From Saccharospirillum sp. (GTDB taxonomy: Bacteria > Pseudomonadota > Gammaproteobacteria > Pseudomonadales > Natronospirillaceae), in the NCBI GenBank assembly GCA_022565595.1, contig JAIUML010000013.1, positions 56,348 to 88,347 on the forward strand: 32,000 nt of DNA, written 5' to 3'. The notes beneath the pieces are model-generated. The model did no database searches. It saw only the letters and a program-made list of their open reading frames with translations, and was not told the origin of the DNA. Numbering within the stretch: position 1 is the stretch's first letter; each line of letters begins with the position of its first letter. This document shows positions 1-16,741 of this stretch, in pieces. Made by a program: the position numbers and the translations under genes.

Positions 1-402
1 GTGACTTCAAGCGAGGTTGAGGCTCTCGTGGTAAAGATGATATGGGGAACAAGATATGGAGAGCCAGAACCATATTTGACTCAAACGAATATTATGACAT
101 CGCTGCAGCGACTATCTAAGAACCCGAAGGCTACAGAGTTGATGCCTAATTATGAGTTTCTGTGCGACATAGCTCATCCTAGCTTCATAGGCAATACCAG
201 CTACTGGTCACATGTGGACTCGGTTTATCCGGATGGTTCAGAAAAACGAGTAATGTCGCGTTTGTCGAGCAGAGAGTTCAATACAGACATTACTGATAAA
301 ACCATATGGGCTCTGGCTTGGTCTTCAGCCTGTGTTCGTAACGCTTTCGAGATTATGAGTGATGCGAATAGAGTCCTGTTGGGCAAGCTGAAAATCAGCT
401 AA
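1..402 (+). CDS. 3' end of a hypothetical protein; the gene begins upstream of the window
   Basis: The frame is open from the window edge to TAA at 400-402. I recognise no family motif. The GTG at position 1 is a window-edge artefact, not a start codon. Composition is intermediate to low GC. Confidence 0.45.
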   Translation: MTSSEVEALVVKMIWGTRYGEPEPYLTQTNIMTSLQRLSKNPKATELMPNYEFLCDIAHPSFIGNTSYWSHVDSVYPDGSEKRVMSRLSSREFNTDITDKTIWALAWSSACVRNAFEIMSDANRVLLGKLKIS

Positions 403-545
403 CAAACGGCTGTTGTCGCCCCTTCGGGGCTGGGACGGCCTTTCCGCCGCTTCGCGGCTACAAGTCCGCCCCAAAGCCGGGCGTTATATCGCAATGCTTT
501 CTGCGACATTTTGGATGTTTTGGCTATCAAAATTATAGGTATTTT
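403..545 (+). other. GC-rich hairpin cluster and possible promoter upstream of the RT; candidate ncRNA or terminator region
   Basis: Read directly: GCCCC-TTC-GGGGC at 418-430, GCCGC-TTC-GCGGC at 446-458, and CGCCC-N7-GGGCG at 467-483. TCGCA-N8-TGCGA at 489-506 is followed by CATTTT. A weak sigma70-like pair follows: TTGGAT (511-516), 17 nt, TATAGG (534-539). Confidence 0.3.
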
Positions 546-2198
546 GTGAAACGTGATCTGGATGAGAATCTTCTAGCATTTCCAATCAACATTGGAGCCA
601 CACTAAAACATCTTCGCCAAGATATGAAGGATGACTGGTTCTATGATTCTGTACGGTATGAAGACCTTCTTTCAAGTGGTAAGAACCTCCACGAGATTCT
701 TTCACAAAACCTTGAGATAAACCATGGTGAATACAAGGCTGGTCATAAGGCTATATATGATGTTCCAAAAAGAGCGCTAGGGCTAAGGTATACATTGGAA
801 TTAGACTTTTATGATAGATTCCTGTACCAAGCGATTTGTAGCTACCTAATTCCATATTTCGATCCGCTCTTATCAAATCGTGTATTCAGTCATCGATACA
901 ATAAGTATGGTAAAGAGAAGTATCTTTTTAAACATCGAATTGAACTGTGGAATACGTTCGAGAACATTAGCCATCTTGCCTTAGTCGATGATAAAACCCT
1001 TTTGGTAACTGACCTTCTTAATTATTTTGAGCAAATATCAATAGATGCCATTGAAAATGCGTTTGTTGGAATGATATCTGAAATCGAAGCAACTGGGGCA
1101 GATAAAAATAAGATACGAAGCGCGGTAAGCACGTTGAGGGTATTGCTCGAAAAGTGGTGTTACAGCGAGAGGCATGGTTTACCACAAAATCGTGATGCAT
1201 CTTCATTTATTGCGAATGTGGTACTTGATGCGGTTGATAAAAGCATGGTCGATAAGGGGTATGATTACTTTCGCTATGTCGATGATATTAGGATTATATG
1301 CTCTGACGAATACCAAGCTAAAAGAGCGCTCAATGACCTTATTTTTGAAATAAGAAAGTTTGGCCTGAATATAAACTCAAAGAAAACTGTAATCCTTGAT
1401 AAGGATAGTGAAAATATTCAAGAGTTCTTTCCGAGCTCTGACGACACTATGACTCTTATCGATACTATGTGGAGGTCTAAGAGCAGGAAAGTAATCGCTC
1501 GGTCGATACCAGTATTATTTGATTTTCTAAAGAAACAAATAGATGAGGGAGAAACACAGAGCCGCCCTTTCCGTTACTGCATAAATCGATTTAAAACATT
1601 GATCTCATCAAACCTTTTTGACTCTAAATCAATTCTCGCCAGTGAGATTGCAGATACCCTAATTCGAGAATTTAGTAGGCAGCCAGTGTCTACTGATCAG
1701 TTTTGTAAGCTATTGATGGATTTGGATTTATCTAATGCGCAAAATCAATCAATCGCAAATTTTATAATGAATAGAGATGTCGCCATACATGGCTGGCAAA
1801 ATTATCACCTTATTTTGCTTATGGCGCATAAGAAATTCAAGGCTACTGACCTAGTGGAACACTGTAAAACTCTGGTTAGGCAAAGTGTTCTTAGTCCCGA
1901 AGTCCCTGCTTGTTTTATATATCTTGCTTCCATTGGTCTTGAAAGTGCCGTTGAAGATTTCATTGAGGATTTTAAGGAAACTTGGCCCTATCAGCACCAG
2001 AGGTACTTTTTGATTGCGCTTCAGAACACACCAAAGGAGAAACTGCAACCCATGTTCGGTAAGGTTGGATATCGTCTGCGGGGGACTGCGGCCAGATTGC
2101 AAAAGAGCAAAATTTTTAAAGGTGATACGGTGTACTTAAGGGATTTCAATACGACACTTATCGATGAAATATATGATGAGATATCTCCGTATGAGTAA
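546..2198 (+). CDS. Reverse transcriptase, stand-alone UG/Abi-like (defence-associated RT type) with an alpha-helical C-terminal half
   Basis: RT motifs occur in the correct order. Motif 1/2 is YDVPKRALGLRY. SHRY follows. Motif A is LLVTDLLNYFEQI. Motif B is GLPQNRDASSFIANVVLD. Motif C is FRYVDDIRII, with YVDD at nt 1275-1286. GLNINSKKT follows. About 220 C-terminal residues look helical. The start is uncertain: GTG at 546 or ATG at 624. Confidence 0.85.
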   Translation: MKRDLDENLLAFPINIGATLKHLRQDMKDDWFYDSVRYEDLLSSGKNLHEILSQNLEINHGEYKAGHKAIYDVPKRALGLRYTLELDFYDRFLYQAICSYLIPYFDPLLSNRVFSHRYNKYGKEKYLFKHRIELWNTFENISHLALVDDKTLLVTDLLNYFEQISIDAIENAFVGMISEIEATGADKNKIRSAVSTLRVLLEKWCYSERHGLPQNRDASSFIANVVLDAVDKSMVDKGYDYFRYVDDIRIICSDEYQAKRALNDLIFEIRKFGLNINSKKTVILDKDSENIQEFFPSSDDTMTLIDTMWRSKSRKVIARSIPVLFDFLKKQIDEGETQSRPFRYCINRFKTLISSNLFDSKSILASEIADTLIREFSRQPVSTDQFCKLLMDLDLSNAQNQSIANFIMNRDVAIHGWQNYHLILLMAHKKFKATDLVEHCKTLVRQSVLSPEVPACFIYLASIGLESAVEDFIEDFKETWPYQHQRYFLIALQNTPKEKLQPMFGKVGYRLRGTAARLQKSKIFKGDTVYLRDFNTTLIDEIYDEISPYE

Positions 2199-3747
2199 GG
2201 GAAGTACTGTATATTTCACGTATCAGAAAGACTTTTCTGAAAGCGGTAAAGATCGATACTTTATATATGACGGTGAGGCATTCTACGAAGTTTCTTCAGA
2301 AGAAGTTGTTGCACTTGATTGTTTCGTTGTAACTCATGATTTCTGGTTGATTTCTAGTTCGTTATTTAAAAAACATGGAAGCTTGCCCTCGAAAATTGTT
2401 GATGTTGTTTTGTTATCAAAGATATCGATCGGAGTGAAATCAATAGACGGAGATGTTCAGCCGTGGGATGTGTCAAAAACTATTAGACCACTATTCAAGG
2501 TTGTCGATGACTTTGATAGTTATATGGACATGTATTATCGGCGCAAAGATCTGGTTTTTGACGTGTACATGCTTTTTTCTCACAAGCTTGCCGAATATTT
2601 TGAGAAATTATCAGTCTTAGCAACAGATTCAGGAGAAATGGAAAGGTTTTATAGTTTGGAGCTCCCTGTCTTTAACAAGCTTACACTTTCAGCATGCAGA
2701 GGCATTCGAGTAGACAATAGTGCTGTTAGAAAGCAAAAGGACAATCTTAAATTGGACTTCTATCGGCAGCTTAAGTTGTTCGCTGAGAAGCATAAAGTGC
2801 TTTACGAACTTCCCAGTAAAGGGGATGCCAGGGAGAAATTGTCCAAGCTAGGATATAACGTTCAGGATTATAGTCTTGAGTTTTTGATTGATTTTCTGCC
2901 TTCGCGTGATGGCTATACCGATGATTTGCGAAGTCTTCAAAAGACGAATAAAGCCTATAGAGTATTTAATTCAATTTCGTATGGTTCTAGTCGACTGAGA
3001 CCAATAGTCGAATCACATTGGACTTCAACATCTAGAATATATCATAAGTCGCCAAACCTTCAGAATATACCAAAAAAGTATCGGAATATATTTATCCCCG
3101 ATGAAGGAATGTCTCTTTGTTATGTGGATTATGATCAGTTTGAAGTTGGCATTATGGCCGCGATTTCATCTGATCCGATAATGAAAGATATATATGAAAA
3201 TCGTGACGCCTATAAAGATTTAGCTGTTCAAGTTTTTAATGACGAGGGAATGAGGAAGAAAGCTAAAGTAATGTTTCTTTCTTACACGTACGGAATGTCA
3301 CTCGAAAATATTATTAGGGCTGTCAAAGAGTTGGGTGGGGATCAAAAAAATGCTCGCGAGTATTTTTCAGGGTTCACTGTATTTGAGTCATGGAAAGAGT
3401 CGGTAAATAATGCATTTTTGAAAAATGGGAAGATTGCGACTATTTCGGCTAATTATTTGAATAGAAATACAAATGCAGAATTAACTGATAAAGAGAAAAG
3501 GGCATCGGTCAATCATGTAATTCAAGGCACAGCCACATATATATTTAAGAGAGCGCTGTTAGAGCTTTCTAGTCTTGATGGTGTTCAAATTCTAATACCA
3601 ATGCATGATGCTGTATTATTTCAGCATACAAACCAAGTAGATCCTAATTCAGTGGTTGAATTATTTGAAGATGTAATGACTAAAGAGTTGTCCGGAAAGG
3701 TGTCTGGTAAGGCATCTATTGAAGCGTTTTATGAGAAAAATAATTGA
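2164..3747 (+). CDS. Family-A (Pol I/Klenow-like) DNA polymerase domain protein with no recognisable 5'-3' or 3'-5' exonuclease domain
   Basis: Pol A motifs are present. YSLELPVFNKLTLSACRGIRVD matches the thumb region. TSTSRIYHKSPNLQNIP has PNLQNIP at nt 3052-3072. Motif A is DYDQFEVGIMAAIS (from nt 3121). Motif B is RKKAKVMFLSYTYGMS. NHVIQGTATYIFKRAL follows. Motif C is IPMHDAVLF (nt 3601-3621). An alternative start, ATG 2191, lies inside ATGAGTAA and overlaps the RT stop, which would give translational coupling. Confidence 0.85.
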   Translation: MKYMMRYLRMSKGSTVYFTYQKDFSESGKDRYFIYDGEAFYEVSSEEVVALDCFVVTHDFWLISSSLFKKHGSLPSKIVDVVLLSKISIGVKSIDGDVQPWDVSKTIRPLFKVVDDFDSYMDMYYRRKDLVFDVYMLFSHKLAEYFEKLSVLATDSGEMERFYSLELPVFNKLTLSACRGIRVDNSAVRKQKDNLKLDFYRQLKLFAEKHKVLYELPSKGDAREKLSKLGYNVQDYSLEFLIDFLPSRDGYTDDLRSLQKTNKAYRVFNSISYGSSRLRPIVESHWTSTSRIYHKSPNLQNIPKKYRNIFIPDEGMSLCYVDYDQFEVGIMAAISSDPIMKDIYENRDAYKDLAVQVFNDEGMRKKAKVMFLSYTYGMSLENIIRAVKELGGDQKNAREYFSGFTVFESWKESVNNAFLKNGKIATISANYLNRNTNAELTDKEKRASVNHVIQGTATYIFKRALLELSSLDGVQILIPMHDAVLFQHTNQVDPNSVVELFEDVMTKELSGKVSGKASIEAFYEKNN

Positions 3748-3846
3748 ACCCGCGAAAATTTCAGCAATAGTAAACAAATCTAGAGACGATATAACAAGCG
3801 ACTGTGATCCATAGTCAACCCAATTTTTGCTGCCCCGAAATATGTA

Positions 3847-3957
3847 TTAAGTGGCTACCCACTCACTATCATTCTTAACCATGGTGTTTAAAATGGTGAC
3901 CATTTTTCGCATACACGCAGTCAAAGCGACTTTTTTGTGCTTACCCTGCGCTACAGC
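3847..3957 (-). pseudogene. C-terminal remnant (~35 codons) of an IS110-family transposase, truncated at the terminal CRISPR repeat
   Basis: The minus-strand translation is AQGKHKKVALTACMRKMVTILNTMVKNDSEWVAT*, with the stop at 3847-3849. It resembles the conserved IS110/IS1111 transposase C-terminus of the form GKPKKVALVACMRKLLTILNAML(R/K)D..W. The frame hits a TAG inside the repeat immediately upstream, and no N-terminal part is present. Confidence 0.55.
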
Positions 3958-6900
3958 TGCCTATGCGGCAGTGAACGGCCGACCATGTAGCGACCACTGA
4001 TTTCGGCGTTTCTGAGCTGCCTATGCGGCAGTGAACAGTCTGCGCTCATACAATCCCCAACTGGCTCATTTCTGAGCTGCCTATGCGGCAGTGAACTCGG
4101 TCGAACTACTAAAATATTTCACTATTAATTTCTGAGCTGCCTATGCGGCAGTGAACCCTGCCGTAATTGTCACAAAAGCCTCCCCACTTTTCTGAGCTGC
4201 CTATGCGGCAGTGAACCCTTAGGGGCTTTGTAAACCCCTTTTAATATGTTTCTGAGCTGCCTATGCGGCAGTGAACGCGTTCCAGGTTACGCGCTTGTTC
4301 TTCAGTAATTTCTGAGCTGCCTATGCGGCAGTGAACGCGACTCAGCAGCCGATAGCAGGCCAAATAGGTTTCTGAGCTGCCTATGCGGCAGTGAACACCT
4401 ACACGCTCACCTATACGGTTATCTATCATTTCTGAGCTGCCTATGCGGCAGTGAACTTGATCAAACATGGATTCCAACTCAGCTTCACTTTCTGAGCTGC
4501 CTATGCGGCAGTGAACGCGTTTTGGGTGCAAATGAACTCAGCCCCAGGTTTCTGAGCTGCCTATGCGGCAGTGAACTTCACACCTATTTCATTCCCCGCA
4601 AGTCCGATTTTCTGAGCTGCCTATGCGGCAGTGAACCAGTAGTGTCTGGCGTTGTGAAGAATAGTTTATTTCTGAGCTGCCTATGCGGCAGTGAACTGAT
4701 AGGCGCTCGCGATCGTCGCCTGCGCGTTTTTCTGAGCTGCCTATGCGGCAGTGAACGGCGGCGTACAGTGCCGAGAACCTGATCAACTTTTCTGAGCTGC
4801 CTATGCGGCAGTGAACACAGTTGTCAGTGACACTGAGGTCAGCGGCACTTTCTGAGCTGCCTATGCGGCAGTGAACGGCTGACCAGTGGTAGCCTTTTGA
4901 TACACCACTTTCTGAGCTGCCTATGCGGCAGTGAACGTAATACAACAAGTGTCAATCTTTCTACTACTTTTCTGAGCTGCCTATGCGGCAGTGAACCCAA
5001 AGCCTATCTCACGTTCTACCTGTGTCATTTTCTGAGCTGCCTATGCGGCAGTGAACGAGGCTACGGCGGGGAGGTCTGCCGGGGCGGTTTTCTGAGCTGC
5101 CTATGCGGCAGTGAACGCCCTGGTTTCCGGCAACATCTACATCTTGCATTTCTGAGCTGCCTATGCGGCAGTGAACACACTTGAAGGCCCATAACGGGCC
5201 TCTTAAAGTTTCTGAGCTGCCTATGCGGCAGTGAACTCAAACATTTCACTTGCTACATCGGCTGCAATTTTCTGAGCTGCCTATGCGGCAGTGAACTTTA
5301 TGACAGAGTTCAATAACTACTGCTGGGCTTTCTGAGCTGCCTATGCGGCAGTGAACCCTATACGCCGGTAACCATGGCCGCCGCTGAATTTCTGAGCTGC
5401 CTATGCGGCAGTGAACCCTGAAAGCGAGTTTATCTATCTTGGGAAAGTTTTCTGAGCTGCCTATGCGGCAGTGAACGAATAGCAGCATCAGACCGAATAT
5501 CAATCAGCTTTCTGAGCTGCCTATGCGGCAGTGAACCCGTTTATGTACTGGCTATTAATTGATCTATATTTCTGAGCTGCCTATGCGGCAGTGAACGACG
5601 CCCGCTGACCCTGATCCAATCCTTTGATTTTCTGAGCTGCCTATGCGGCAGTGAACATACAGTGTTCCGCGTCCCCTTGACTGTACCCTTTCTGAGCTGC
5701 CTATGCGGCAGTGAACGATCTCTTTGGCTTTGCGCTCAGCTTCTTTGCTTTCTGAGCTGCCTATGCGGCAGTGAACGCTATGCCGTTAGGGTTCTGTTCG
5801 TTCCATGTTTTCTGAGCTGCCTATGCGGCAGTGAACGATAATTCAAGGTTGATACCAGTTGATGACTGTTTCTGAGCTGCCTATGCGGCAGTGAACCTAC
5901 CGGACGATGAGCGAGAATGGAGCCTTGATTTCTGAGCTGCCTATGCGGCAGTGAACTATCAATGCCTTTATCCGGTGACTCGCCAATATTTCTGAGCTGC
6001 CTATGCGGCAGTGAACATGTGGCAATATCGGTATCACCCAGATCAATATTTCTGAGCTGCCTATGCGGCAGTGAACTGCTGTCTCTGTCTGACCGCCTCT
6101 CTGCACCATTTCTGAGCTGCCTATGCGGCAGTGAACGCGCAAAACATATAACGGTGCGGAATAATGCCTTTCTGAGCTGCCTATGCGGCAGTGAACTTCG
6201 CCACGGTAGCGGATGGTGCGATTCTGTATTTCTGAGCTGCCTATGCGGCAGTGAACGTTCACCTTAGATCAGGTTTCGGGACAGCACATTTCTGAGCTGC
6301 CTATGCGGCAGTGAACGCGGCACCAATCCTCACCAGTCCAACGGCAACTTTCTGAGCTGCCTATGCGGCAGTGAACTCTCTATGTCTCGCTTAAACGCTA
6401 CATCGTCATTTCTGAGCTGCCTATGCGGCAGTGAACACAAGACCGAAGCGGCTATGGTCCATTACTGTTTTCTGAGCTGCCTATGCGGCAGTGAACAAGG
6501 CTTGACGATTCCTGAGCCGTTGCAGTGTTTTCTGAGCTGCCTATGCGGCAGTGAACTCGAAATGAATTCCGAGCCAGGTGCTGCTGATTTTCTGAGCTGC
6601 CTATGCGGCAGTGAACGAAGAAATTAGAACCCAGCCAGCGTGCGAGCTTTTCTGAGCTGCCTATGCGGCAGTGAACCGCGTCTTCTTCATTGATCAACTT
6701 GGAGTAAATTTCTGAGCTGCCTATGCGGCAGTGAACCTGGGCTTCGCTGTAATCCCCTACCCGGCCAATTTCTGAGCTGCCTATGCGGCAGTGAACGTAC
6801 GGTTGGTGTCTACCCTGACACTTCCACGTTTCTGAGCTGCCTATGCGGCAGTGAACCTATTGATCGTTCGATAGTTTTACCCTTTAATTTTCTGAGCTGC

Positions 6901-7996
6901 CTATGCGGCAGTGAACTATCCGCTTGACTCGGGTTTGTGGAGTGGCTTTTTCTGAGCTGCCTATGCGGCAGTGAACCACACTCCTTGAATGGCCAGTTGG
7001 CACCATTATTTCTGAGCTGCCTATGCGGCAGTGAACTGAACAAGACCGACAGAACACTCACTGTTTTTTTTCTGAGCTGCCTATGCGGCAGTGAACGCTA
7101 TAGCGCGAGCAATGAGCGATAACCCAACTTTCTGAGCTGCCTATGCGGCAGTGAACGCACAGGAAAGGCGTTTGTCGCTTATAGATTTTTTCTGAGCTGC
7201 CTATGCGGCAGTGAACATGGTCTGACTTTTTAACCAGTTTAAAACTCTTTTCTGAGCTGCCTATGCGGCAGTGAACGCTGTCGCCTTCACATCGTGCTTG
7301 TTATAGCTTTTCTGAGCTGCCTATGCGGCAGTGAACGAAAACTATCAGTTGATTGCTTATGCACTAATTTTCTGAGCTGCCTATGCGGCAGTGAACTCCC
7401 CCCAACCTTCGCGTATGATATCCTGCTTTTTCTGAGCTGCCTATGCGGCAGTGAACAGAATGGAACGCCTGTTTAACCGTAGCGCCCTTTTCTGAGCTGC
7501 CTATGCGGCAGTGAACTTGTCGCAACGCAATGGACTTTGCGGACCAGTTTTCTGAGCTGCCTATGCGGCAGTGAACTTGATGTACTCATAGAGTTCGTCG
7601 CTTCCGGCTTTCTGAGCTGCCTATGCGGCAGTGAACGTTTCAGGGTGTGCGTTTGTGGGTGTTTTTGTTTTCTGAGCTGCCTATGCGGCAGTGAACCTCC
7701 CCGCTGGTTGCGTCGTATTCCTGCCCTTTTTCTGAGCTGCCTATGCGGCAGTGAACACAATACGCACACATTTGGTGATTTTGCTAGCTTTCTGAGCTGC
7801 CTATGCGGCAGTGAACACGGGGATGTAACAGGCGACATTGCGGTCACTTTTCTGAGCTGCCTATGCGGCAGTGAACTTGACGACTTCAATCACTTTATTG
7901 ATTCTCTTTTTCTGAGCTGCCTATGCGGCAGTGAACCAGAGCCAGACCCGGCTGACGTTATTGCATTGTTTCTGAGCTGCCTATGCGGCAGTGAAC
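3949..7996 (-). CRISPR. Type I-F CRISPR array with 68 repeats and 67 spacers
   Basis: The 28-nt repeat is GTTCACTGCCGCATAGGCAGCTCAGAAA on the minus strand. It differs at 2 positions from the P. aeruginosa I-F repeat as I recall it. The period is exactly 60 bp, so every spacer is 32 bp. I checked 67 identical repeats line by line (4009...7969). The trailer repeat at 3949-3976 is degenerate in its outer 6 nt. Orientation follows the repeat sequence and the adjacent cas6f and leader at the high-coordinate end. Confidence 0.98.
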
Positions 7997-8128: not shown

Positions 8129-8692
8129 TTAGAACCAGGGGATAGTCGCCCCCTTGCTCAACCCGTAGCTTGAAAATGCACCGGGTTGCTCAGCGGTCAG
8201 GGGCTCCCCCTGGTCAATGAATAGCTTGAACAGCTCTCCTGTGCTTCTACTGCTCAATGTTGCAAAAGGCAGGTTGCTTTTTTGCTCAATTGAGATAGGA
8301 ATAGCCTGGGCTGCTTGTTCGTACGTTTCCCCTTTTCGTTTCATCCGCCTTCGCCTGAGCCGTTCTGCATTGGACTTCACTTGACGGCGTTGCACAATAC
8401 GGTGCTTGGCTTCTGCCGGAACAGGTTGAGGCGTATTGCATATTGCGTGATCAGACATACCCAAAAGCCATCGTTTTTCCATCAATTGATTGAGCCGCTG
8501 TTCATTACCGTGAAGCCGCAAGCGGCCTCCCAGGTTACGAGGCGATAAACTGTAGTCTGGAAAGCTGATGCCAATGTCTGTCGCTTCCATTTCGACCAAA
8601 GCCCGGTGAAGCTTGCTGATCAAGGCATTCATCAGCATGGGAGCACCAAACTCGGGGTCGGGTCGCAATTGTATTTCCAGATAATGGTCCAT
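8129..8692 (-). CDS. cas6f: Cas6f (Csy4) crRNA endoribonuclease
   Basis: MDHYLEIQLRPDPEF...GLSKGATIPWF is collinear with P. aeruginosa Csy4 as I remember it (MDHYLDIRLRPDPEF...GLSKGGFVPWF). I chose ATG at 8692 rather than the TTG at 8698 in the ORF track. Confidence 0.95.
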   Translation of the reverse strand: MDHYLEIQLRPDPEFGAPMLMNALISKLHRALVEMEATDIGISFPDYSLSPRNLGGRLRLHGNEQRLNQLMEKRWLLGMSDHAICNTPQPVPAEAKHRIVQRRQVKSNAERLRRRRMKRKGETYEQAAQAIPISIEQKSNLPFATLSSRSTGELFKLFIDQGEPLTAEQPGAFSSYGLSKGATIPWF

Positions 8693-8694
8693 AA

Positions 8695-9732
8695 TCAACC
8701 GGCCTCCCCGAACACGCCTCCGCGAATGAGCGTGGCGATAACAAAGTGCTGGTTACCCTCATCGGGCTGCTCATCTTTCAGCACCCAGCGGTCCAGCAAG
8801 GTATAGAAATCTGCCTTGTCTTTGGGTTGGCGATAAGCTTTACCCTGGGTGGTAACAGAGCCATAAGGCTCCACTGCGATGGGGCCAAGGTCTTTCCCTT
8901 CGTCATCTGGGTACCAGGTGTCGATGGTGCGAATGGCATTGCCGATTTTTTGTGAATGAATACCCGCAACATCCTGGACCGAGTAGAGTGTCCGGCTCTT
9001 GGAGCCTTTATCGCGGCCTAGTATTAGCTCTTGAGAGGGGAACACTTCCTGGCCAGCACCCATGCGGGCAAAGGCGATGACTTCCAGTAAGGCATGACTA
9101 CTGCCAGACAACCCTTGTTCCACTTGTTGTGCGAGCTGCTCAATCTGCTGAGCATTGTTGCCTTCTGCAGAAAAGTTTCGCGTGGGGCAAGTAAGGGCAT
9201 CGAAAGTCCAGCGTTGTGCCTCGGTGCCCTGTGTGAGTTGTCGTACATGGACTTCAACCTGCTCTGCACCGAATCGGTTACGCCACAAAAAGCGGCCATT
9301 GGCCAGGTTGATAGCATAACGCCTGGCTACTTCACCGAACCCATGGCTGGCGATGTATCCATCCACCACCTCTTTCAACTTGGCTTGATAGTCTGCATCG
9401 TTGCAGGAAGAGGGCGTGCCTGCGCCTGCCAAAACCCTCAAGGTGAAGCGAACCATTAGGGTGTCGGCATCGCTAGGCAAAGTAGCAACATCGACGGTTT
9501 GCAGGTTGGGGTTTTCTATAGCAGCATCGAGTTTGGCAGCATCCTGATCTTTGGCTTTTAACCTGTTGGATATCGTCCCCCGAACGGATTTCTCCCTCAC
9601 ATTTATGGGTTGCCAATTATCCAGTTGGTCTCGTTGGTCCCAGTTCCCGGCATACAAGAGTGCATCCGAAACATCCAGTTTGCGTTCGAATGCCAGAACC
9701 GAGGCGGTTTTCAATACAGTTGGCTTAGTCAT
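8695..9732 (-). CDS. csy3: Csy3 (Cas7f) Cascade backbone subunit
   Basis: [25 protein letters not shown]...[11 protein letters not shown] closely parallels P. aeruginosa Csy3. ATG 9732 sits 1 nt after the csy2 stop (TGAcATG). The 34-codon N-terminal extension in the ORF track overlaps csy2 and I rejected it. Confidence 0.95.
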
Positions 9733-9733
9733 G

Positions 9734-10702
9734 TCAGATCTCCTGTACTTCGTGGTGGTTTTGCTGTTCATTAACGTTTTGCAAGCGGTACATACCTTGA
9801 TCGAGGTCATTCTCGACGTACCACAGCAGTTCACTTGGATGTTTTAACCGATGGGGGCTGATCCACTGGCCAATTGAATACAAGCTTTCTACGAAGCGAA
9901 AAGGCGTGGTGGCATCACGAGCATTGGCAACCACTCCAGGTTTGTACAACTCAGAAAGCTTCGAGTATCCGACCGGGATTGGCACCAGCCAACCCGGCTG
10001 CATACGAATCTGCCATTCCACCTCTCCTTTATCTTCCTCACACTCCATGTTCAGTCGGGATAGGTCGAGCCAGGCGTCCAGTTGAGTGACTTCGGGATCT
10101 TGAGCGGCCATGCTCTGGAAGTGGCTTTGCAGCAAGTCATCACGCAGAACCAGGGCAAAACCTGGCATCAAGCGACGTCGTAGTGACAGGAAATCCTTAT
10201 ATTGCTCTGCTGAGTCCTCGGGTATTTTCGATATATAAGGTGACGGAGCCCTGGTACCCGGCATAGGTGGTACAATGACACCTCCGGCAATCCTCATGGT
10301 CTGCAATATTTGGTTGAGACTTTCGGCGACTTGCTGCTTGTCTTCTTTACTGCCCGAGAGGTCTGCGCCTCGTATGCCAAAGGCCAGGCTGATATCAAGA
10401 TGAATGCGCCCCTCTTCGACAATGGCTGAGGTCTTGCCGGTCTTGTCTACCGGATTCCGAGTCAAATTGAAAGTACGGACAAAACCGCCTCTGGAAACCT
10501 GAGCCTCGTGGTGGTGGCATACGACGCCAATACCATCGAACAGCACATTGATGCCAGCGGCAATGGCCTTTCGTTCCAGTGCCTGCATGATGCCGACAAA
10601 GGCACTCATGGCCGGGAATCCCCAGGTCAGGTTGCTGGAAATGGTGTTGGCATTTTGAACACGCAGGCGTGGTATAACCAATAAATTGCTGAGGTCTGTC
10701 AT
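9734..10702 (-). CDS. csy2: Csy2 (Cas5f)
   Basis: The segments [37 protein letters not shown] and [10 protein letters not shown] parallel P. aeruginosa Csy2. It overlaps csy1 by 4 nt (ATGA). Confidence 0.93.
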
Positions 10703-11991
10703 ACCAGCACCTCCCTGAAAAAGTTTAAACGACTACTGATATGGCTTAGCCACTCCTTGTGTTCGGAATCACCTACGGGTAAATCGCGAAGTTGGTGGTT
10801 TACCCATTTTGCGAATCGGTCTTCGATTTGTGCGGGCCATTCCATGCGAACCCTTTGAGCCAGGAAGACTTCATCTGTTTCACCTCGCCAGGCATCCAGC
10901 CAGAGCTTTTCGGCATCTGCTAACCGGCAGTTTTCATCGGCAGACCAGCCCGGTTCGAGCAGATCAAATCGTGCAGCATAAACGACCAGTTCCTCGATCA
11001 GGGCATTAATGAATTCATCGACCTTGTCGCGAGTACCCATATTGGGCTGTGGGTTACTCTTCAGGAACTTGAGCAGGTTGCGGGTGAGCCATTGCACTTC
11101 TCGCTGACGACCAAAGCGAGGAAAAATGGAATCGGTATGCAAGGGTGGGTTGATCGGATTAGAGCGCCACTGGGGTGGTAGTGAAGCCAATAGATAATTG
11201 GTGCCACCTCGTTCACTATTGAGTTGGGAGATGTTCTGTGGCTTGGTTCCTCCCAGCTTTTGTACTGCCAGATTGGGGTAGTCGCTGTAGCCGTTTTCAG
11301 AATGCTTCTTGTCCTTCTTGGCTTGCCGAGCGGCTTTCGCTGCCTCTCCGAATCGGTCTTCCTGAATATGTTGGTAGAGTTGATGCACCAGTGATGTAGG
11401 ATAGAGAGGGGCCAAAAGGTGGTACTGGCTGTCGTCAGTTGGATCATCACCGGTCAGCCAGTATATTTGCTTGGCTCGGGTGCTGGAGGCTTCTGTGCCT
11501 TTGGGTTCTACAATGGCGGCGAATGCAGCCGTTTGTTGTTGAGCAATTTCCGCGTCATTGTTCATTGCTTCAACGAACTGAGGGTCATTTTCTAGTGCCA
11601 TGTCCAGCAGCGTACGGCCGTTGAGTTCCAGCTTGAGGAATTTATAGACGTCCAATGCAGCTGCGTTGCCAACGACATCAGCCGAATAGTTGCTCTTGAG
11701 CAGGTGGCTACTGACCTGGTTGGCTTTTGGTAGGGAGTCTGGCGTTACAAAAAGGTTGGTGCCTTTTGCATCCGGATGAATGGCTTTTAGAGAGTGAGTA
11801 ACAACCTGAAGCTGGGTAACCCGGCGTGCGGCATCCGCTATCCAGGTTTCGTACTCAAGCTGTTGTTGGGTTTCTTGGTATTTCGGGTCGTCGGGTTTGA
11901 GCTTTTCGAGTTTGGTAGCGAGACGTTCGTTCAGAAAGGTTTGTATCAACCCGCGTACGTCCGTGCCCCTCTCAGTGTTTGAGTTGGCCAT
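10699..11991 (-). CDS. csy1: Csy1 (Cas8f) large subunit
   Basis: Its position and size (430 aa) match the first gene of the csy1-4 block. It has an AAGGAAG Shine-Dalgarno 5 nt upstream of the ATG. It is coupled to csy2. Confidence 0.88.
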   Translation of the reverse strand: MANSNTERGTDVRGLIQTFLNERLATKLEKLKPDDPKYQETQQQLEYETWIADAARRVTQLQVVTHSLKAIHPDAKGTNLFVTPDSLPKANQVSSHLLKSNYSADVVGNAAALDVYKFLKLELNGRTLLDMALENDPQFVEAMNNDAEIAQQQTAAFAAIVEPKGTEASSTRAKQIYWLTGDDPTDDSQYHLLAPLYPTSLVHQLYQHIQEDRFGEAAKAARQAKKDKKHSENGYSDYPNLAVQKLGGTKPQNISQLNSERGGTNYLLASLPPQWRSNPINPPLHTDSIFPRFGRQREVQWLTRNLLKFLKSNPQPNMGTRDKVDEFINALIEELVVYAARFDLLEPGWSADENCRLADAEKLWLDAWRGETDEVFLAQRVRMEWPAQIEDRFAKWVNHQLRDLPVGDSEHKEWLSHISSRLNFFREVLV

Positions 11992-12246
11992 AAGTCTTCC
12001 TTAGCCCGGCATGGGCTTTTAAAAGAGGGTATGGCACAATGGTGACCGTTCAAGAAAGGCCACCATTGTGCTTTTTGGTATTGGGCGAGATTCTCGCCAC
12101 TAATGTCTTCTAATGACGCAATAGCCAATCACGCTCTGTTACCTCCTTTCTTGTGCGGGGCTGACAAGATCAGCTGGCTGTATTGCCGTACAGCCGGTTC
12201 TAGTCTCTTGCTTACAGCTCAACCCTGATGGGTTGGGCTGTACTCT

Positions 12247-12274
12247 ATAATATGGTAAAAGCTTGACTTGTCAA
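12247..12274 (-). promoter_or_regulatory. Near-consensus sigma70 promoter reading toward csy1
   Basis: On the minus strand, TTGACA (12274-12269), a 16-nt spacer, then TATTAT (12252-12247). The -35 box is one arm of the perfect palindrome GCTTGAC-TT-GTCAAGC (12261-12276). Confidence 0.5.
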
Positions 12275-12275
12275 G

Positions 12276-12301
12276 CCTTAGTGTTCTCAAGTTTTATTAA
12301 A
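12276..12301 (+). promoter_or_regulatory. Predicted Csy-complex binding site: CC PAM plus a partial protospacer matching the psi-spacer at 12392-12415
   Basis: CC lies at 12276-12277. It is followed by TTAGTGTTCTCaAGTTTt, against psi-spacer TTAGTGTTCTCtAGTTTc. Positions 1-11 and 13-17 match, positions 12 and 18 do not, and the match decays after 19. Confidence 0.5.
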
Positions 12302-12363
12302 TAACTATTTGCTGGATATGAAGGAAGTAGATATTGTTGAATAAGTAGTTAAAATACGTTCGC

Positions 12364-12443
12364 AATTACTACTGCCTAAGTAGCTTAGAAATTAGTGTTC
12401 TCTAGTTTCAAACTAAAAGACTGCCGAATAGGCAGAAATTTTG
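12364..12443 (+). ncRNA. Degenerate mini-CRISPR (psiR1, 24-nt psi-spacer, psiR2) encoding a crRNA-like RNA of the CreA/CreR class
   Basis: psiR1 (12364-12391) matches the array repeat at 19 of 28 positions without gaps. It keeps a 5-bp/5-nt hairpin through two compensatory pair changes and keeps the handle CTTAGAAA. psiR2 (12416-12443) matches at 15 of 28 and keeps ACTGCCGaATAGGCAG. It is oriented opposite to the cas genes and is followed by a strong terminator. Confidence 0.6.
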
Positions 12444-12470
12444 AGCCAGTTTTCTGGCTCAATTTTTTTT
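12441..12470 (+). terminator. Intrinsic terminator for the plus-strand mini-CRISPR transcript; its hairpin also lies just past the convergent cas2-3 stop
   Basis: TTGAGCCAG-TTTT-CTGGCTCAA is followed by TTTTTTTT on the plus strand. On the minus strand the same hairpin starts at the cas2-3 stop codon but has only a weak AATTTCT tail. Confidence 0.65.
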
Positions 12471-15400
12471 CGTGAAACCCAAGTTTGGATGAAAACGCCA
12501 GCCACTTTCATTACTGGTTAAACTTATGGTTCCAAACTTTAATGCACAAAATTTTAATTCCAGCTCCATTTCTTCGGATAATTTTTCCAGTGTCTCCAAA
12601 TAATTTGGATCACCCCATGGCGAAATGCCTTTTTCCGGTGCCATTTCTAGGCGTTCCAAAAGATTGTTCACTGGGGCGTAGAGGTCTTTTTTTTGCTTCC
12701 GATCAAAGCTAATCTCGAACAAGTCAAAATCATCCTCATCTTCATTTGGTAGTAGCACCAGATCCGTACTCTCTATTGGGTCTTCCCGAAAAGGTCTCCA
12801 TTTCTGCAGTAAAGCGGTCAAATTGACCTGCGGTTGGCTATGCCAGCTATAAGCCCCCAATTTGGGCGCTGCGAATTCTTGACCAAGAGCTCGTTGCTCC
12901 CTTGGACTTAACGGCTTGAATTCAGGCTCTATCATCAGTCTATCCAACCGAGCATGCTCCAGGTCCACCAGGCTGGACTTGGGGTGCAGTGGCACTCGAG
13001 GCACTATGCGTGGACGTGAATCAATCGTCTCACGTTCTTCGGGTTCAAGGAGTTGATCCATCTCATGAGTTGTGAGTTTCCATTCTCCGTTGTCTTCAAA
13101 GCCTGGCCTGCAAAAGGCGGCTTCGCCTTTGAGCTCCAATGCCCTCAGGTTGGTCTTTAACAGAAATATATTGGCCAGCTCACAAGGTTCGAATCGATGT
13201 CGACGAACCCGACCGGCAAGCTGGATCAGAGATCTCATGGATGACGGTTCGACAATGGCCCAGTCGTAGTCGTGGTCCCTGCCTACCTCTGTAACGGGTG
13301 AGCCAAGTACTATAAGCAGATGGTCTGATTCCGGGTGGGCGTCGATGCGAGTGCGGATATCCTCGAGTTTGAACACGGAATCGGGGTCGCTCCGATTAAG
13401 GGCCTGGTCGAGCCTGCGCTCTATGGCAGAGCGCAACAGCAGGGGGTACTGGGAGTGGTATACGCAAAGGTGAATGTGAACCCCCTCGGGGGCGCCTAAC
13501 CGATAGAGGTTTTGGGCTACTTCGACTAGAGGTTCTATGTTGGCCATGCGGATCAGGCCAAAACTAACTCGCTTGTTGCTGTGGGGGTCTGTGCAGTGGT
13601 GGCGTTGGTGCAGTGTTAGAGCGCCTTTTAGCAGGTCTTCAGCCAGGGAAGCACGTAGGGTTTCCTTGGTACCTTGGCACACGCTGATAGGGTAGATCTC
13701 TGTGCGTCTTCTTGCAGTTTCTTCGGCCAGCTTTTGGCAGCGTTTTTGGGCGAAAGCATTGTGTATTTGTAGAAAGGTTTCAGAATCTGGGCAGCTCTGA
13801 TGCTGTTGGCCGTGTTCATCGAACCAGGCACAACAGGTGGAGAACACCTGGTTCGGTTCTCCTCTGTTGCGTTGGTATTCTTCACGCCCGGCCCGATAAG
13901 CATTAAATAGGCCCTGTACGAGAGCTGGCGGTAATGTCGCGGAGGAAAGCAATACTTTGGTTCCTAGGAGGCCTGCCCAATGGACGAGTCGGGTGAGGGC
14001 TGGCAAGTCACTCAGGTCGAAGTCGTCTATTTCATCGAGTACCAGGTCGCTGCTGAGCAAGCGCAACATGGGGGCAATCTGGCGGCCGCCTCGATCGCCT
14101 TCTGTTGCAGGGATTAAATGGTCGACGGTGCATACCAGAATGGGCGCAGAGAGTAGCGGTTTGATCTTGTCGTTGTGTGAGGTGGCCTTTAAAAGCGGGT
14201 GCTGGCTGAAGTTGCCTTCGTAGTGAACGTGGCTATCTTCTTCCATCAAGGCCTGGTTGGAAGCGGAACCGGTTTTTTCGGCTTCTGCCTCGTAGTGTTC
14301 GAAGAGCTTGCGGCTGGCGCTACCGCCGACGCGAACTGCAAGGTCATCGTCGTTCAGGTTCAGTCTGTCTCGGTAGGCCTGGCCGGTTTGCAGCGTCAGG
14401 GTGCGTAAGCCCAGTGCAATGGAAAAGCGGGCGCCTTTGGCCGGGTTGGAGAGAGCGTAAAGAATGCGGCCGTTGGCCAGTGTTTTACCACAGCCTGTTG
14501 AGGCCATGTTAATACCAAAGAACCCTTGGCTCTCGGCCAGGTCGCGTATGCCCTCGGCTAGGTCGAATGCTTTATCCTGCCAGCGAAAGCGTGGGTCTTT
14601 GCTGCGCTGTCTGAAACCTTTGTGTCGGGCCAGCCGCGGCAGGTTGTTGGTCAGGGTGGTGAGGTGGTAGCTCACTTCTCGGCTGACTTTGGCAACACCG
14701 AGCAGGTGTTCATCCAGTTTCTGGCAGAGCTCTCCGGTTTTACGAATGGTATTGGCGTAGAGCGGGTATTCCTTGTCGCCCGTTACGCGGTCTGCACTGG
14801 CTGTCAGGCTTGAGTAGTGGTGGTCGGCCAGCATCAGTGAGAGCCGAGCCAGGTGCATGACATAGGTGTTGGCGAGCCAGCCTCTGGGTTCGTTGTCTTG
14901 CCGTTCCAGCAAGCGTGTTGCGTATTTGGCCGCTTGAGTACGCCACTTGGTTGTGATGACGGGTAAGGGTTTGCTGAATGTCCAATAGGGTTTCATGGCT
15001 TTGGGTTCTGCACCTTCGTAGAGCTGATTCCAGTCTGCCTGGATGTTACCAGGTAAACCGATAAGGCTCTCACCGCTGATCTCTTTGCGCTCGGGCATGG
15101 CCGGTAGGCGATGATGCGTCAGTATCAGCCAGCCAACGGCGGCGGCCAGAGGTGGCAGGTGGCGAAAAGGGTTGCCGTCAGCCGCATCGATTCCGTCTTT
15201 TTGCAGTCGGTCTTTCCAGGTTTTGTCATCGGCCTTTGAGGGGTTTGCCAGTCGTTTGAGCCAAACGTCATCTGAATCGTTGCCGACAAAGGCCTGAAAT
15301 AGCCTCAGAGATATCCATTCGTGCCGGTAAATATTTGGGCCTGGGTCGTTTGTGCCCAGCAAGCGTTTCTGGAAAGCACTGCAGGCTTTGCCCAGGTCGT

Positions 15401-15767
15401 GCATCAAGGCCGAGAGTGCAGCGAATAGTTTGATGTCTTCGGCAGTGTGCCAGTCGTTTTCGTCTTCGCGGCGTACAATATTACGTTTTGTGGTGTTGGT
15501 GGGTACGGAACCTTCGGTATTGAACCGGCTGGAATCGCCAACAATCCAGAGTAGCTCGCTGTGATCTTTGCCCCGAATCCAGTGACAGGAAACCGCTGTG
15601 TTTTTTCGAGCCGTTCTGCGCAGCAGTTTGCGTAAGGTATTGAGCCCTTCGTAAGTAATGGGGGTTTGCCAGGTGCGGTCACCTCGGCGTTCAGCAAATT
15701 GATCCAAAATGCGTCGGGTCTCAGTCAGGGCGTTCTTGTTGCATTGGGAGATCAACAAAATATTCAT
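12459..15767 (-). CDS. cas3: Cas2-3 fusion (Cas2 domain, HD nuclease, SF2 helicase), type I-F
   Basis: The protein is 1102 aa. It has an N-terminal Cas2-like segment, an HD motif (LMHDLGKACSAFQ), Walker A (ASTGCGKT) and a DExD-like box (LVLDEIDDF). It overlaps cas1 by 4 nt. Confidence 0.95.
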   Translation of the reverse strand: MNILLISQCNKNALTETRRILDQFAERRGDRTWQTPITYEGLNTLRKLLRRTARKNTAVSCHWIRGKDHSELLWIVGDSSRFNTEGSVPTNTTKRNIVRREDENDWHTAEDIKLFAALSALMHDLGKACSAFQKRLLGTNDPGPNIYRHEWISLRLFQAFVGNDSDDVWLKRLANPSKADDKTWKDRLQKDGIDAADGNPFRHLPPLAAAVGWLILTHHRLPAMPERKEISGESLIGLPGNIQADWNQLYEGAEPKAMKPYWTFSKPLPVITTKWRTQAAKYATRLLERQDNEPRGWLANTYVMHLARLSLMLADHHYSSLTASADRVTGDKEYPLYANTIRKTGELCQKLDEHLLGVAKVSREVSYHLTTLTNNLPRLARHKGFRQRSKDPRFRWQDKAFDLAEGIRDLAESQGFFGINMASTGCGKTLANGRILYALSNPAKGARFSIALGLRTLTLQTGQAYRDRLNLNDDDLAVRVGGSASRKLFEHYEAEAEKTGSASNQALMEEDSHVHYEGNFSQHPLLKATSHNDKIKPLLSAPILVCTVDHLIPATEGDRGGRQIAPMLRLLSSDLVLDEIDDFDLSDLPALTRLVHWAGLLGTKVLLSSATLPPALVQGLFNAYRAGREEYQRNRGEPNQVFSTCCAWFDEHGQQHQSCPDSETFLQIHNAFAQKRCQKLAEETARRRTEIYPISVCQGTKETLRASLAEDLLKGALTLHQRHHCTDPHSNKRVSFGLIRMANIEPLVEVAQNLYRLGAPEGVHIHLCVYHSQYPLLLRSAIERRLDQALNRSDPDSVFKLEDIRTRIDAHPESDHLLIVLGSPVTEVGRDHDYDWAIVEPSSMRSLIQLAGRVRRHRFEPCELANIFLLKTNLRALELKGEAAFCRPGFEDNGEWKLTTHEMDQLLEPEERETIDSRPRIVPRVPLHPKSSLVDLEHARLDRLMIEPEFKPLSPREQRALGQEFAAPKLGAYSWHSQPQVNLTALLQKWRPFREDPIESTDLVLLPNEDEDDFDLFEISFDRKQKKDLYAPVNNLLERLEMAPEKGISPWGDPNYLETLEKLSEEMELELKFCALKFGTISLTSNESGWRFHPNLGFTKKN

Positions 15768-16741
15768 GCGACACTCTCTTCCATCTGAACAGCGATGGTT
15801 TTCAAACTGTCTATCATGAAATCCAATGATTCAGAACGGGTCAGCACTTCGATGCAGTTCTGACGAAACTCCTGTTCGCTTTCGCCACGAATGGCCGAGA
15901 TAAAAGCCTGGGGGAGAATGGCAGCGTCTTTCACTAGGTCGGCGACATCAAACACCAATCCACCACGTCGGGTTTTACCGTGCAGTACAGCGAGCCCGTG
16001 TGGTAGCCCAAGCACCCAGGTGGCCGTGGCGGCCAGGCCATAGGCTAGGTAGTTGCCGTGATCCAGGAATCGGTTGGCAGGGTCGGTACCCGTGCCCCGT
16101 TTGGCTCGAGTAAAGTCGCCATAGCCACTGGCCAGGATGGCGAGCTTAAAGAGTACTTTGGTTAAACGGGCTTCTTCCGTTAACAGAAAGGTGACATCGG
16201 GCGCGTCCATAACTTTGGTACGACTGCGCTCGATGGCATGACCTAATTGTGCCTTGTCGACTTCAAATCCCGCGTCTTGTAAGCGGCGGTTGTCCGTCCA
16301 GGTGGCCATGATTCTATCCAGCCTTGCCATCTGTATGGCTTTGGCGGCCTGCAAGCGTTTTTCGTCATCAAACCAGAAGCCTACCCATTTTTGCAGGTAT
16401 TCGGTGGGGCGGTACTCACTTTGAGGTGTAAGCCAGGCTGCGTCGATGTCTACTTCGCTAGCGCTAAAAAGAGGGGTGCCACCACCGCCGCAAAATCCGA
16501 CGAGTACACCGGCCTTGGCCAGTTCGCGCATGGCGGCCTGGGTAATGGAGGTGCCTGTGCCCAGCAACAAGGTAGTGGTGTTGGCGATGGGGATGTTCCA
16601 ATAGAGAGACTGCTTGCCTTCATCCGTGACGTATTCTACCCGGCCACCCTTAACCAGCACTCGGCAGTGCTGCAAGTAATAAATATTGGCACGCTTGGAA
16701 TGCAGAATGGTTTTCAGATCCGTAGGGGAAAAATCGTCCAT
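15764..16741 (-). CDS. cas1: Cas1 integrase, type I-F
   Basis: MDDFSPTDLKTILHSKRANIYYLQHCRVLVKGGRVEYVTDEG...GTGTSITQAAMRELAKAGVLVGFCGGGGTPLFS is near-collinear with P. aeruginosa I-F Cas1 as I remember it. An AAGGAGAG Shine-Dalgarno lies upstream. Confidence 0.97.
   Translation of the reverse strand: MDDFSPTDLKTILHSKRANIYYLQHCRVLVKGGRVEYVTDEGKQSLYWNIPIANTTTLLLGTGTSITQAAMRELAKAGVLVGFCGGGGTPLFSASEVDIDAAWLTPQSEYRPTEYLQKWVGFWFDDEKRLQAAKAIQMARLDRIMATWTDNRRLQDAGFEVDKAQLGHAIERSRTKVMDAPDVTFLLTEEARLTKVLFKLAILASGYGDFTRAKRGTGTDPANRFLDHGNYLAYGLAATATWVLGLPHGLAVLHGKTRRGGLVFDVADLVKDAAILPQAFISAIRGESEQEFRQNCIEVLTRSESLDFMIDSLKTIAVQMEESVA

Follow-up and report, generated by a model that had tools for sequence, protein, structure and literature searches.

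The question raised here is what kind of system is formed by a reverse transcriptase (RT) gene and a directly following gene for a family-A DNA polymerase, found together at positions 546 to 3747 of a 32,000-nucleotide (nt) stretch of Saccharospirillum sp. DNA (GenBank assembly GCA_022565595.1, contig JAIUML010000013.1, positions 56,348 to 88,347; hereafter the window), and what kind of DNA the two enzymes might make. A first interpretation made from the letters of the window alone (the sequence-only reading) took the pair for a candidate new two-polymerase defense module with no mechanistic account. Profile searches, structure models and comparison with other genomes now identify it, almost certainly, as the small variant of the UG9 group of UG/Abi RTs together with its RT-associated family-A polymerase (RTasPolA, also known as 'cluster 58'), an assignment that rests on profile scores. 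Novelty did not survive the literature: the association of an RT with a PolA-type polymerase was first reported by Kojima and Kanehisa in 2008 as 'family D', now UG9 (as credited in PMC9226505), was catalogued again in 2022, and is represented among the PADLOC models. The remark about mechanism still holds, as no description of how UG9 and its PolA work was found in the literature to mid-2026, where the pair appears only in catalogue-level mentions.

The published survey of UG9 divides 79 members into 60 of the small variant and 19 that carry an N-terminal protease on the RT and an upstream metallo-β-lactamase (MBL) hydrolase (PMC9226505). UG9 was not among the groups tested against phage by Mestre et al. 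2022 (PMC9226505). DRT10, one of the defense-associated RT (DRT) systems, corresponds to UG17. Every sequence test run for the UG9 small variant gave a positive result at this locus, and on these grounds the locus appears to be a member from which nothing essential differs: it shares with the published RT and family-A polymerase of UG9 or 'family D' (PMC9226505) the full-length profile matches, the gene order, the lack of a protease and MBL gene, and a mobile or defense-associated context. The cited UG9 texts do not describe four of the features set out below, namely carriage between attC recombination sites, an 8-nt overlap of the two genes, an invariant PMHDA motif in the polymerase, and a degenerate exonuclease-like domain.

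The RT gene (positions 546 to 2198, plus strand) starts with a GTG codon at a position that relatives keep as ATG or GTG, and encodes a protein of 550 amino acids. This protein matches the PADLOC profile RT_UG9_small over its full length (E 6e-239, 792 bits, profile positions 3 to 541 of 541), the runners-up being UG9_large with 310 bits and UG21 with 190 bits; RT_UG10_small reaches only 52 bits, over the RT core alone. The Pfam model RVT_1 matches as well (E 4e-11), and the NCBIfam Drt2, Drt3, Drt4, retron and group II models fall far below their cut-offs (Drt4, for example, scores 72 bits with a cut-off of 450). By these scores the enzyme belongs to the UG/Abi lineage and does not cluster with RTs of group II introns, retrons or diversity-generating retroelements (DGRs), the placement that the sequence-only reading had named as fatal to its claim. 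Aligned from profile position 3, the protein has no N-terminal trypsin-like protease, and no MBL hydrolase is encoded upstream, which identifies the small variant. The catalytic motif YVDD (Y244 to D247) lies at positions 1275 to 1286, and D156, Y244, D246, D247, N277, K280 and T281 are invariant across 27 loci; translation and the RVT_1 match thus bear out the 550-residue length, the catalytic motifs and the position of YVDD as originally described.

In an AlphaFold2 (AF2) model (pLDDT 84) the RT consists of a palm and fingers region, residues 1 to about 300, followed by a helical, HEAT-like α-repeat domain from about 300 to 546, with residues 300 to 546 all-helical. The best Foldseek matches in the PDB, all of them full length, are DRT4/UG15, the hexameric DRT6, AbiK, Abi-P2 and AbiA. 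Since the profile scores and the full-length matches to class 1 enzymes agree, the protein is assigned by modeling to the class 1 'RT plus α-repeat' architecture, in keeping with the helical C-terminal half that had been likened to UG/Abi RTs. Two tyrosines outside the active site are conserved among the 27 loci, Y63 in a fingers loop (96%) and Y126 in a palm loop (85%), and are put forward purely by inference as candidate priming residues; the PDB profile alignment to DRT4 spans RT residues 157 to 286 only, so that equating Y126 with Tyr125 of DRT4 is a guess. The protein ends in an acidic tail, IYDEISPYE (residues 542 to 550, positions 2169 to 2198), which is disordered in the AF2 model and semi-conserved across phyla, as IYDEIS in Proteobacteria and LPDxIS in Bacteroidota (27 loci). 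As a speculation, this tail could be a docking peptide for the polymerase.

The polymerase gene occupies positions 2191 to 3747 on the plus strand and encodes 518 amino acids. Its open reading frame (ORF) is listed from an ATG at 2164 (527 amino acids), but the homologues are mostly 513 to 524 amino acids long and the PADLOC profile begins at the methionine encoded at 2191, which is therefore taken as the real start, as had been proposed from the sequence. The protein matches PADLOC RTasPolA over its full length (E 1e-172) and Pfam DNA_pol_A (E 2.6e-34), and PDB profiles match it to Pol I at 1e-28. With E-values of 1e-172 here and 6e-239 for RT_UG9_small, the matches of the two proteins are not due to chance. 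The AF2 model (pLDDT 89.8, pTM 0.90) gives full-length fold matches to the large fragment of Bst Pol I, to KlenTaq and to the polymerase domain of Pol theta (TM 0.70-0.75). The enzyme is Klenow-like, with an exonuclease-like domain at about residues 1 to 120, then thumb, palm and fingers, and it lacks a 5′-nuclease domain.

Conservation in the polymerase was assessed in 131 family members, 15 of which are at only 25-30% identity. The PNLQNIP motif of the primer-terminus contact region (positions 3052 to 3072) keeps P288 and Q291 in every sequence. Motif A, YVDYDQFE (3121 to 3144), contains the catalytic D313 (3127-3129) and the steric-gate residue E318, which align to D705 and E710 of Klenow and are invariant in all 131. 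Motif B, the O-helix RKKAKVMFLSYTYG (3253 to 3294), has an invariant R355 (131/131), and K359, Y367 and G368 are found in 129-130 of the 131, the exceptions being a one-sequence gap and one Y367F substitution. Together, the residues that are invariant or nearly so are R282, Q291, R298, D313, E318, R355, K359, Y367, Q445, K453, H472 and D473, of which R282 and Q445 are minor-groove contacts by alignment to Klenow. Retention of these catalytic residues suggests that the polymerase is competent for templated synthesis. The motifs A, B and C and PNLQNIP of the sequence-only reading are all reproduced by translation, with the qualification that motif C reads HDA, not HDE.

Motif C, PMHDA (residues 470 to 474, positions 3598 to 3612), aligns to QVHDE of Klenow and keeps the catalytic D473; all 130 sequences that have a residue at the last position read P-M-H-D-A, so that the canonical glutamate of HDE is always alanine. 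That glutamate is one of the classical three carboxylates of the Klenow fragment. The exonuclease-like region has diverged in another manner. Several acidic and histidine residues are invariant within the proteobacterial subfamily, but the 15 distant members have lost D14, D21, H49 and D50, the positions equivalent to E357 and D501 of Klenow vary, and Pfam detects no exonuclease domain in the protein; the alignment of this region to a Klenow sequence is of low confidence, whereas the polymerase domain aligned well. From the loss of exonuclease residues in distant members and the missing Pfam match, proofreading is probably absent, the domain being degenerate though homologous to that of Pol I. 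Compared with the Klenow and Bst fragments, then, RTasPolA shares the full-length fold, motifs A and B, PNLQNIP and the residues that sense the minor groove, and differs in its shortened exonuclease-like domain, which lacks the conserved DEDD set, in its HDA motif C, in its identity of only about 17%, and in its constant position behind an RT.

The two reading frames overlap by 8 nt at positions 2191 to 2198 (plus strand), where ATGAGTAA holds both the ATG of the polymerase (2191-2193) and the TAA of the RT (2196-2198). An overlap of this form, ATGNNTRA, occurs in 20 of 33 junctions, including loci whose polymerases are only 27-38% identical, and 11 further junctions fall between -4 and +12 nt, which puts 31 of 33 within -8 to +12 nt. 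In Proteobacteria the overlap is created by the residues P-Y-E/D that the RT tails add at their end. Two loci look disrupted at the junction, one in Tateyamaria sp. SN6-1 (L014; labels of this kind denote records of the comparison set) and one in an Acidobacteriaceae genome (L031), where the RT frame is shortened to 438 and 475 amino acids and lies 195-536 nt from the polymerase; both are probably decaying copies. By this arrangement RT and polymerase are translationally coupled.

A survey with two conserved polymerase peptides, scanning one genome per species, returned 37 loci. A gene for a UG9-like RT lies directly upstream on the same strand in all 32 that have upstream DNA, and the other five end at a contig edge. 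The loci come from Gamma-, Beta- and Alphaproteobacteria, Bacteroidota, Acidobacteriota, Desulfobacterota, Bdellovibrionota and the candidate division Hyd24-12, at least six phyla. Approached from the RT side, the polymerase is immediately downstream in 3 of 3 cases (Alteromonas macleodii, Xanthomonas arboricola and Polaromonas naphthalenivorans), and plasmid pDSHI01 of Dinoroseobacter shibae also has the polymerase downstream of the RT, with the same 8-nt overlap (L040, 51856-55099). Pairing across unrelated genomes, which had been proposed as a check, is therefore seen from both sides. Distant pairs still match RT_UG9_small and RTasPolA, and throughout the family the RT is more conserved than the polymerase (48% versus 37% identity in L012, for example). 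One locus (L035) is a large variant with RTasMBL, RT_UG9_large and then RTasPolA, and the polymerase is thus the constant partner in small and large variants. An all-against-all comparison of 785 flanking ORFs found no third conserved gene, as no flanking gene was common to more than 3 of 33 loci; the small variant is, for this reason, an autonomous two-gene unit.

The closest relatives of the pair are 3.3-kb integron cassettes, and the edges of the window copy suggest that it arrived in the same form. Upstream lies the complete attC of a preceding cassette (positions 396 to 492, beginning TAACAAACGG and ending GGGCGTTAT), with a cassette junction G|TT at 483/484 and a bottom strand that forms a hairpin (z = -3.3). 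The stretch homologous to the cassette copies in a contig of a 'Pedobacter' metagenome-assembled genome (L001), Vreelandella olivaria (L002), Marinospirillum minutulum (L003) and Pontibacterium (L005) begins at 480-483, that is, at the G|TT of this attC. Behind the polymerase gene, L001 to L003 have a complete attC (TATAACAAGGCGCTGC...GCAGAGCGCGGCGTTAT; L001:4083-4153, L003:4908-4985). Comparison with these three leaves, in the window, a remnant of about 12 nt of the cassette's own attC, GATATAACAAGC (3789 to 3800); homology to L001 ends at 3797, from where the sequence diverges up to the CRISPR array, and positions 3786-3870 show no fold (z = 0). Given that only about 12 nt of the attC remain and that no fold is present, the window copy appears to have lost its 3′ recombination site. 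No integron integrase was found among the genes called up to 10 kb upstream (L038, L039) or downstream in the window. The pair has a GC content of 0.377 (546-3747), compared with 0.558 for positions 8129-32000, in line with the AT-richness relative to the DNA on its right that had been noted at the outset. By this sequence evidence the module probably came in by horizontal transfer as an integron-type cassette, and it has become fixed next to the type I-F CRISPR-Cas locus.

The L001 copy is 96% nucleotide-identical, attC included, and lies on a 5.4-kb contig (JAKFBV010000034.1) binned as 'Pedobacter sp.'; it probably reflects a mistake in binning or else a transfer that happened very recently. 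More distant members are found in the context of insertion sequences, in an integrase-bounded island and on a conjugative plasmid. A phage origin was considered and rejected, as searches of IMG/VR contigs and GenBank phage records returned no viral relative. That integron cassettes harbor a store of anti-phage systems has been documented (Darracq et al. 2025 and Kieffer et al. 2025, as cited in PMC13434031). The pair resembles those cassettes as a defense-type module, bounded by attC sites in its closest relatives, of which the same cassette is found in different genera, and differs from them in that its cassette is large (3.3 kb, two genes), its own attC is truncated here, and no integrase lies within 10 kb upstream.

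The case for a defensive function is drawn from such contexts. UG9 is enriched in defense islands and was predicted to be defensive for that reason (Mestre et al. 2022, PMC9226505). At 17 other loci, 93 ORFs flanking the pair were scanned with PADLOC, with no background control, which returned type I restriction-modification, AbiEi/AbiEii, Cas1e, HEC-06, PDC-S11, mad2 and a type II methylase, and in Xanthomonas the neighbors of the pair are an Mrr-like nuclease, ParE/ParD, RhuM and UvrD/PD-(D/E)XK helicases. The recurrence of defense families near the pair in other genomes, which the sequence-only reading had proposed to look for, suggests qualitative agreement with the published enrichment. 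In the window itself, the type I-F CRISPR-Cas locus and a gene for a WYL-domain protein lie near the pair. The large variant adds an MBL nuclease and a protease, a pair of the type found in Avs, Lamassu and Hachiman, which in other systems forms a protease-activated DNase (bioRxiv 10.1101/2025.07.28.667249). A role in defense is judged probable.

The first question about mechanism is whether the RT copies an RNA. Between the upstream cassette junction and the RT start lies a 63-nt 5′ leader (positions 484 to 545, plus strand) with a weak AGG 6 nt before the GTG, conserved among the attC-borne copies only. A scan of positions 1-4000 for promoters and terminators found fewer promoter-like sites than shuffled sequence, none of them placed to drive the RT gene, and Rfam at gathering score detected in the same interval no noncoding RNA (ncRNA) family, only the CRISPR repeats. 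In loci whose proteins are 62-79% identical, the similarity at the nucleotide level breaks off at both ends of the coding sequence, the cassette copies excepted, and the non-coding space amounts to 63 nt upstream and nil between the genes. Neither Rfam (1-4000) nor the flank comparison and the profile scores gave any sign of a retron, group II intron or DGR cognate RNA beside the RT. Outside the coding sequence, then, no conserved ncRNA accompanies the pair, which fits class 1; an RNA may yet lie within it.

Characterized UG/Abi systems offer several precedents. According to a 2026 preprint, class 1 enzymes are untemplated and class 2 enzymes are templated by ncRNA: the class 1 systems studied make DNA with no nucleic-acid template, protein-primed in several cases, and the class 2 systems DRT2, DRT9, DRT10 and DRT3a use cis-encoded RNA templates. 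DRT4 makes random single-stranded DNA (ssDNA) without a template, priming on its Tyr125, and its trigger is a phage DNA-binding protein that shields the product's 3′ end; DRT6, a structural homologue of DRT4, is activated by the same phage protein, and AbiK, Abi-P2 and AbiA prime on tyrosines at other positions (PMC12783706). Control lies with the phage DNA-binding protein and host exonucleases in DRT4 (PMC12783706), and with SbcB in DRT10. DRT4 (UG15), DRT6 (UG12), AbiK, Abi-P2 and AbiA are the nearest solved structures to the window RT, with which they share the RT plus α-repeat architecture; they are oligomeric, protein-primed enzymes making untemplated ssDNA, but each works by itself or together with HEPN or other domains, and a DNA polymerase dedicated to the RT accompanies none of them.

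The sequence-only reading had set out from the premise that characterized RT defense systems rely on the RT alone for DNA synthesis, and this is contradicted by DRT7, DRT3 and DRT9. In DRT7 the RT makes protein-templated poly(T), which a fused PrimPol uses as primer and template to give palindromic fold-back DNA (bioRxiv 10.64898/2026.04.18.719102); in DRT3 two RTs make complementary repeat strands (bioRxiv 10.64898/2026.05.04.722794); and the complementary strand of DRT9 has been attributed to a cellular polymerase. DRT7 (UG10) is the best functional analogy to the pair, as in it a class 1 UG/Abi RT is joined by a second polymerase activity, one that is DNA-templated. It differs in having a UG10 RT and an archaeo-eukaryotic PrimPol within the same polypeptide, whereas the UG9 partner is a separate Klenow-like enzyme and Pfam finds no PrimPol domain in either protein of the pair; a PrimPol can prime, and family-A polymerases cannot. 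DRT3 (UG3 with UG8) is alike in being a two-polymerase operon with a duplex output, of which DRT3b is class 1, protein-primed and free of a nucleic-acid template. Both of its polymerases are RTs, however, one of them needs a cis-encoded ncRNA, and neither strand is copied from the other, whereas the UG9 partner is a template-reading DNA polymerase with no ncRNA evident. The likeness of the pair to DRT7 and DRT3 is by analogy only, and it is a member of neither.

From these precedents a most likely mechanism can be proposed. The RT, probably as an oligomer formed through its α-repeat domain, would prime on a tyrosine of its own (Y63 and Y126 being the candidates) and polymerize ssDNA with no nucleic-acid template, as DRT4, AbiK and Abi-P2 do; judged by analogy, an untemplated, protein-primed step of this kind is favored, though not strongly. 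The co-translated polymerase, with no working proofreading site, would then take the RT strand as its template, with fold-back providing the primer, and yield duplex or hairpin DNA. This handoff, likewise argued from analogy, is plausible but stands somewhat short of an even chance. On infection, accumulation of DNA or a drain on nucleotides would harm the phage or the cell, as abortive infection, and the small variant would do so with no separate nuclease or membrane effector. The idea that the second polymerase acts on the product of the RT had been put forward in the sequence-only reading; the DRT7 precedent speaks for it, but its description of that product as a cDNA made from RNA is disfavored, given that the RT belongs to class 1 and that the pair has no conserved non-coding region beside it. 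As a compromise figure for the identity and the inferred mechanism together, the whole explanation is about evenly balanced between right and wrong.

Several considerations weigh against this proposal and against the defensive role. The handoff from RT to polymerase rests wholly on analogy, and a physical interaction of the two proteins is hypothetical. The polymerase has no primase, so that fold-back or some other 3′ end has to supply the primer, and the alanine of motif C in every member could mean altered chemistry and not ordinary templated synthesis. As regards defense, no phage-protection assay of UG9, nor any other UG9 experiment, was found in the literature, and the survey of neighboring genes is the uncontrolled one described above. 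On pDSHI01, a 190-kb conjugative plasmid, the pair sits between relaxase/coupling-protein genes and genes of the type IV secretion system (T4SS), a placement that is unusual for a defense system and hints at a possible role in plasmid biology.

Two of the competing explanations concern what the enzymes do with nucleic acid. The RT might copy an RNA, whether an mRNA or some structured RNA concealed within the operon, into cDNA, leaving second-strand synthesis or amplification to the polymerase, as in retroviruses or DRT2. The complete RT active site, the cis-encoded RNA templates of the class 2 systems and the room for an RNA embedded in coding sequence would all permit this, yet the RT is class 1 by profile and fold, every class 1 enzyme studied is untemplated by nucleic acid, and the flanks offer no Rfam match, no conservation beyond the cassette copies and hardly any non-coding space; the explanation is improbable. 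Marginally less so, but still doubtful, is the suggestion that the polymerase does not copy the RT product at all. It might be a regulator whose exonuclease-like domain or DNA binding restrains the RT-made DNA until infection, or an independent effector whose runaway synthesis on phage or host DNA ends drains deoxynucleoside triphosphates (dNTPs) or blocks replication, while the RT would serve as a sensor or supply primers. Other DRTs are governed through the fate of the product 3′ end (DRT4, DRT10), the N-terminal acidic and histidine residues are invariant within the proteobacterial subfamily, and the unusual PMHDA hints at non-standard catalysis. Against this, the exonuclease-like residues are lost in distant members while the polymerase site is invariant, from which it follows that selection acts on polymerization and not on a nuclease, and the conserved translational coupling fits a stoichiometric complex working on one substrate.

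The other two explanations concern the purpose of the module. It might not be primarily antiviral and might serve DNA-damage tolerance or repair, or the establishment and maintenance of plasmids and integron cassettes. The RT-PrimPol of DRT7 has been reported in the response to oxidative damage as well as in defense, and the pDSHI01 copy and the missing UG9 assay point the same way; the published enrichment in defense islands (PMC9226505) and the recurring defense neighbors, the MBL nuclease and protease of the large variant, the sporadic, horizontally transferred distribution with foreign GC content, and the record of integron cassettes as an anti-phage reservoir oppose it and make it rather improbable, a little more so than the RNA-copying explanation. 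Far more remote is the notion that the pair is an accessory of the adjacent I-F CRISPR-Cas system, making, for example, double-stranded prespacers from RNA or ssDNA for Cas1-Cas2/3. Other CRISPR types include RT-Cas1 fusions by which spacers are acquired from RNA. They provide a precedent, as does the distance of 200 nt to the array, but the pair borders on the trailer end, and neither the leader nor the adaptation genes adjoin it, it probably arrived as an integron cassette of different GC content, and its RT lies outside the clade of CRISPR-associated RTs by PADLOC profiles. Among the 93 ORFs flanking the pair at 17 other loci there is one Cas1, of type I-E, and no flanking gene is conserved. 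With no conserved CRISPR linkage in the 785 flanking ORFs or in the 93 scanned with PADLOC, the accessory idea was rejected.

If the protein-primed, untemplated RT step and the handoff to the polymerase were both to hold, the two enzymes might act as one machine that makes double-stranded or hairpin DNA from dNTPs alone, with the protein-primed strand re-copied by fold-back, by a polymerase with the non-canonical PMHDA motif C, as a self-amplifying effector of abortive infection; this stronger version is unlikely on present grounds. In it, the sequence of the strand would perhaps be set by the active site of the RT itself. If this is true, DRT3 and DRT7 would be joined by a third independent way of making untemplated duplex DNA, the first to use a polymerase of the Pol I family. 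RT defense systems have repeatedly revealed unexpected forms of DNA synthesis, including de novo genes, homopolymers and protein-templated repeats, and UG9 is one of few catalogued groups that pair an RT with a Pol I-family polymerase. A polymerase selected for protein-linked, untemplated DNA would illustrate how duplex DNA can be formed with no template to begin with, and could be a useful DNA-writing tool. The locus described here leaves existing knowledge as it stands; its value is that of an intact and compact cassette of 3.3 kb whose boundaries are defined, and of family-wide features that could guide mutagenesis, namely the 8-nt overlap, the PMHDA motif, the degenerate exonuclease domain, the candidate tyrosines and the acidic tail.

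The DNA on either side of the module completes the picture of the window. Upstream, a 276-amino-acid ORF, whose C-terminal part occupies positions 1-402 and whose full length is found at L038:8938-9768, ends just 5′ of the attC. Its matches to AbiB and DUF4158 are sub-threshold only; it has no MBL or PADLOC RTasMBL match and no family assignment. As a part of the module it was rejected, as it is not conserved beside the pair in other genomes. Downstream, a type I-F CRISPR array of 68 repeats (positions 3949 to 7996, minus strand; identified by Rfam CRISPR-DR4 and sequence reading) lies outside the module. A degenerate trailer-end repeat at 3949-3976, 200 nt from the polymerase stop, precedes 67 perfect, identical repeats at 4009-7996 (67 matches to CRISPR-DR4). 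The cas genes Cas1f, Cas3f and Csy1-4 (8129-16741, minus strand) form a complete, profile-confirmed type I-F locus, and the large CRISPR-Cas locus that the sequence-only reading placed beside the pair is thus present in full. This very long array is accompanied by a complete cas1, cas2-3 and csy1-4 operon and a gene for a WYL-domain protein (8129-17674), which adjoins cas1. Past the WYL gene the window carries housekeeping genes, among them those for an EamA transporter, an EAL protein, an ABC transporter and a GH20 hydrolase.

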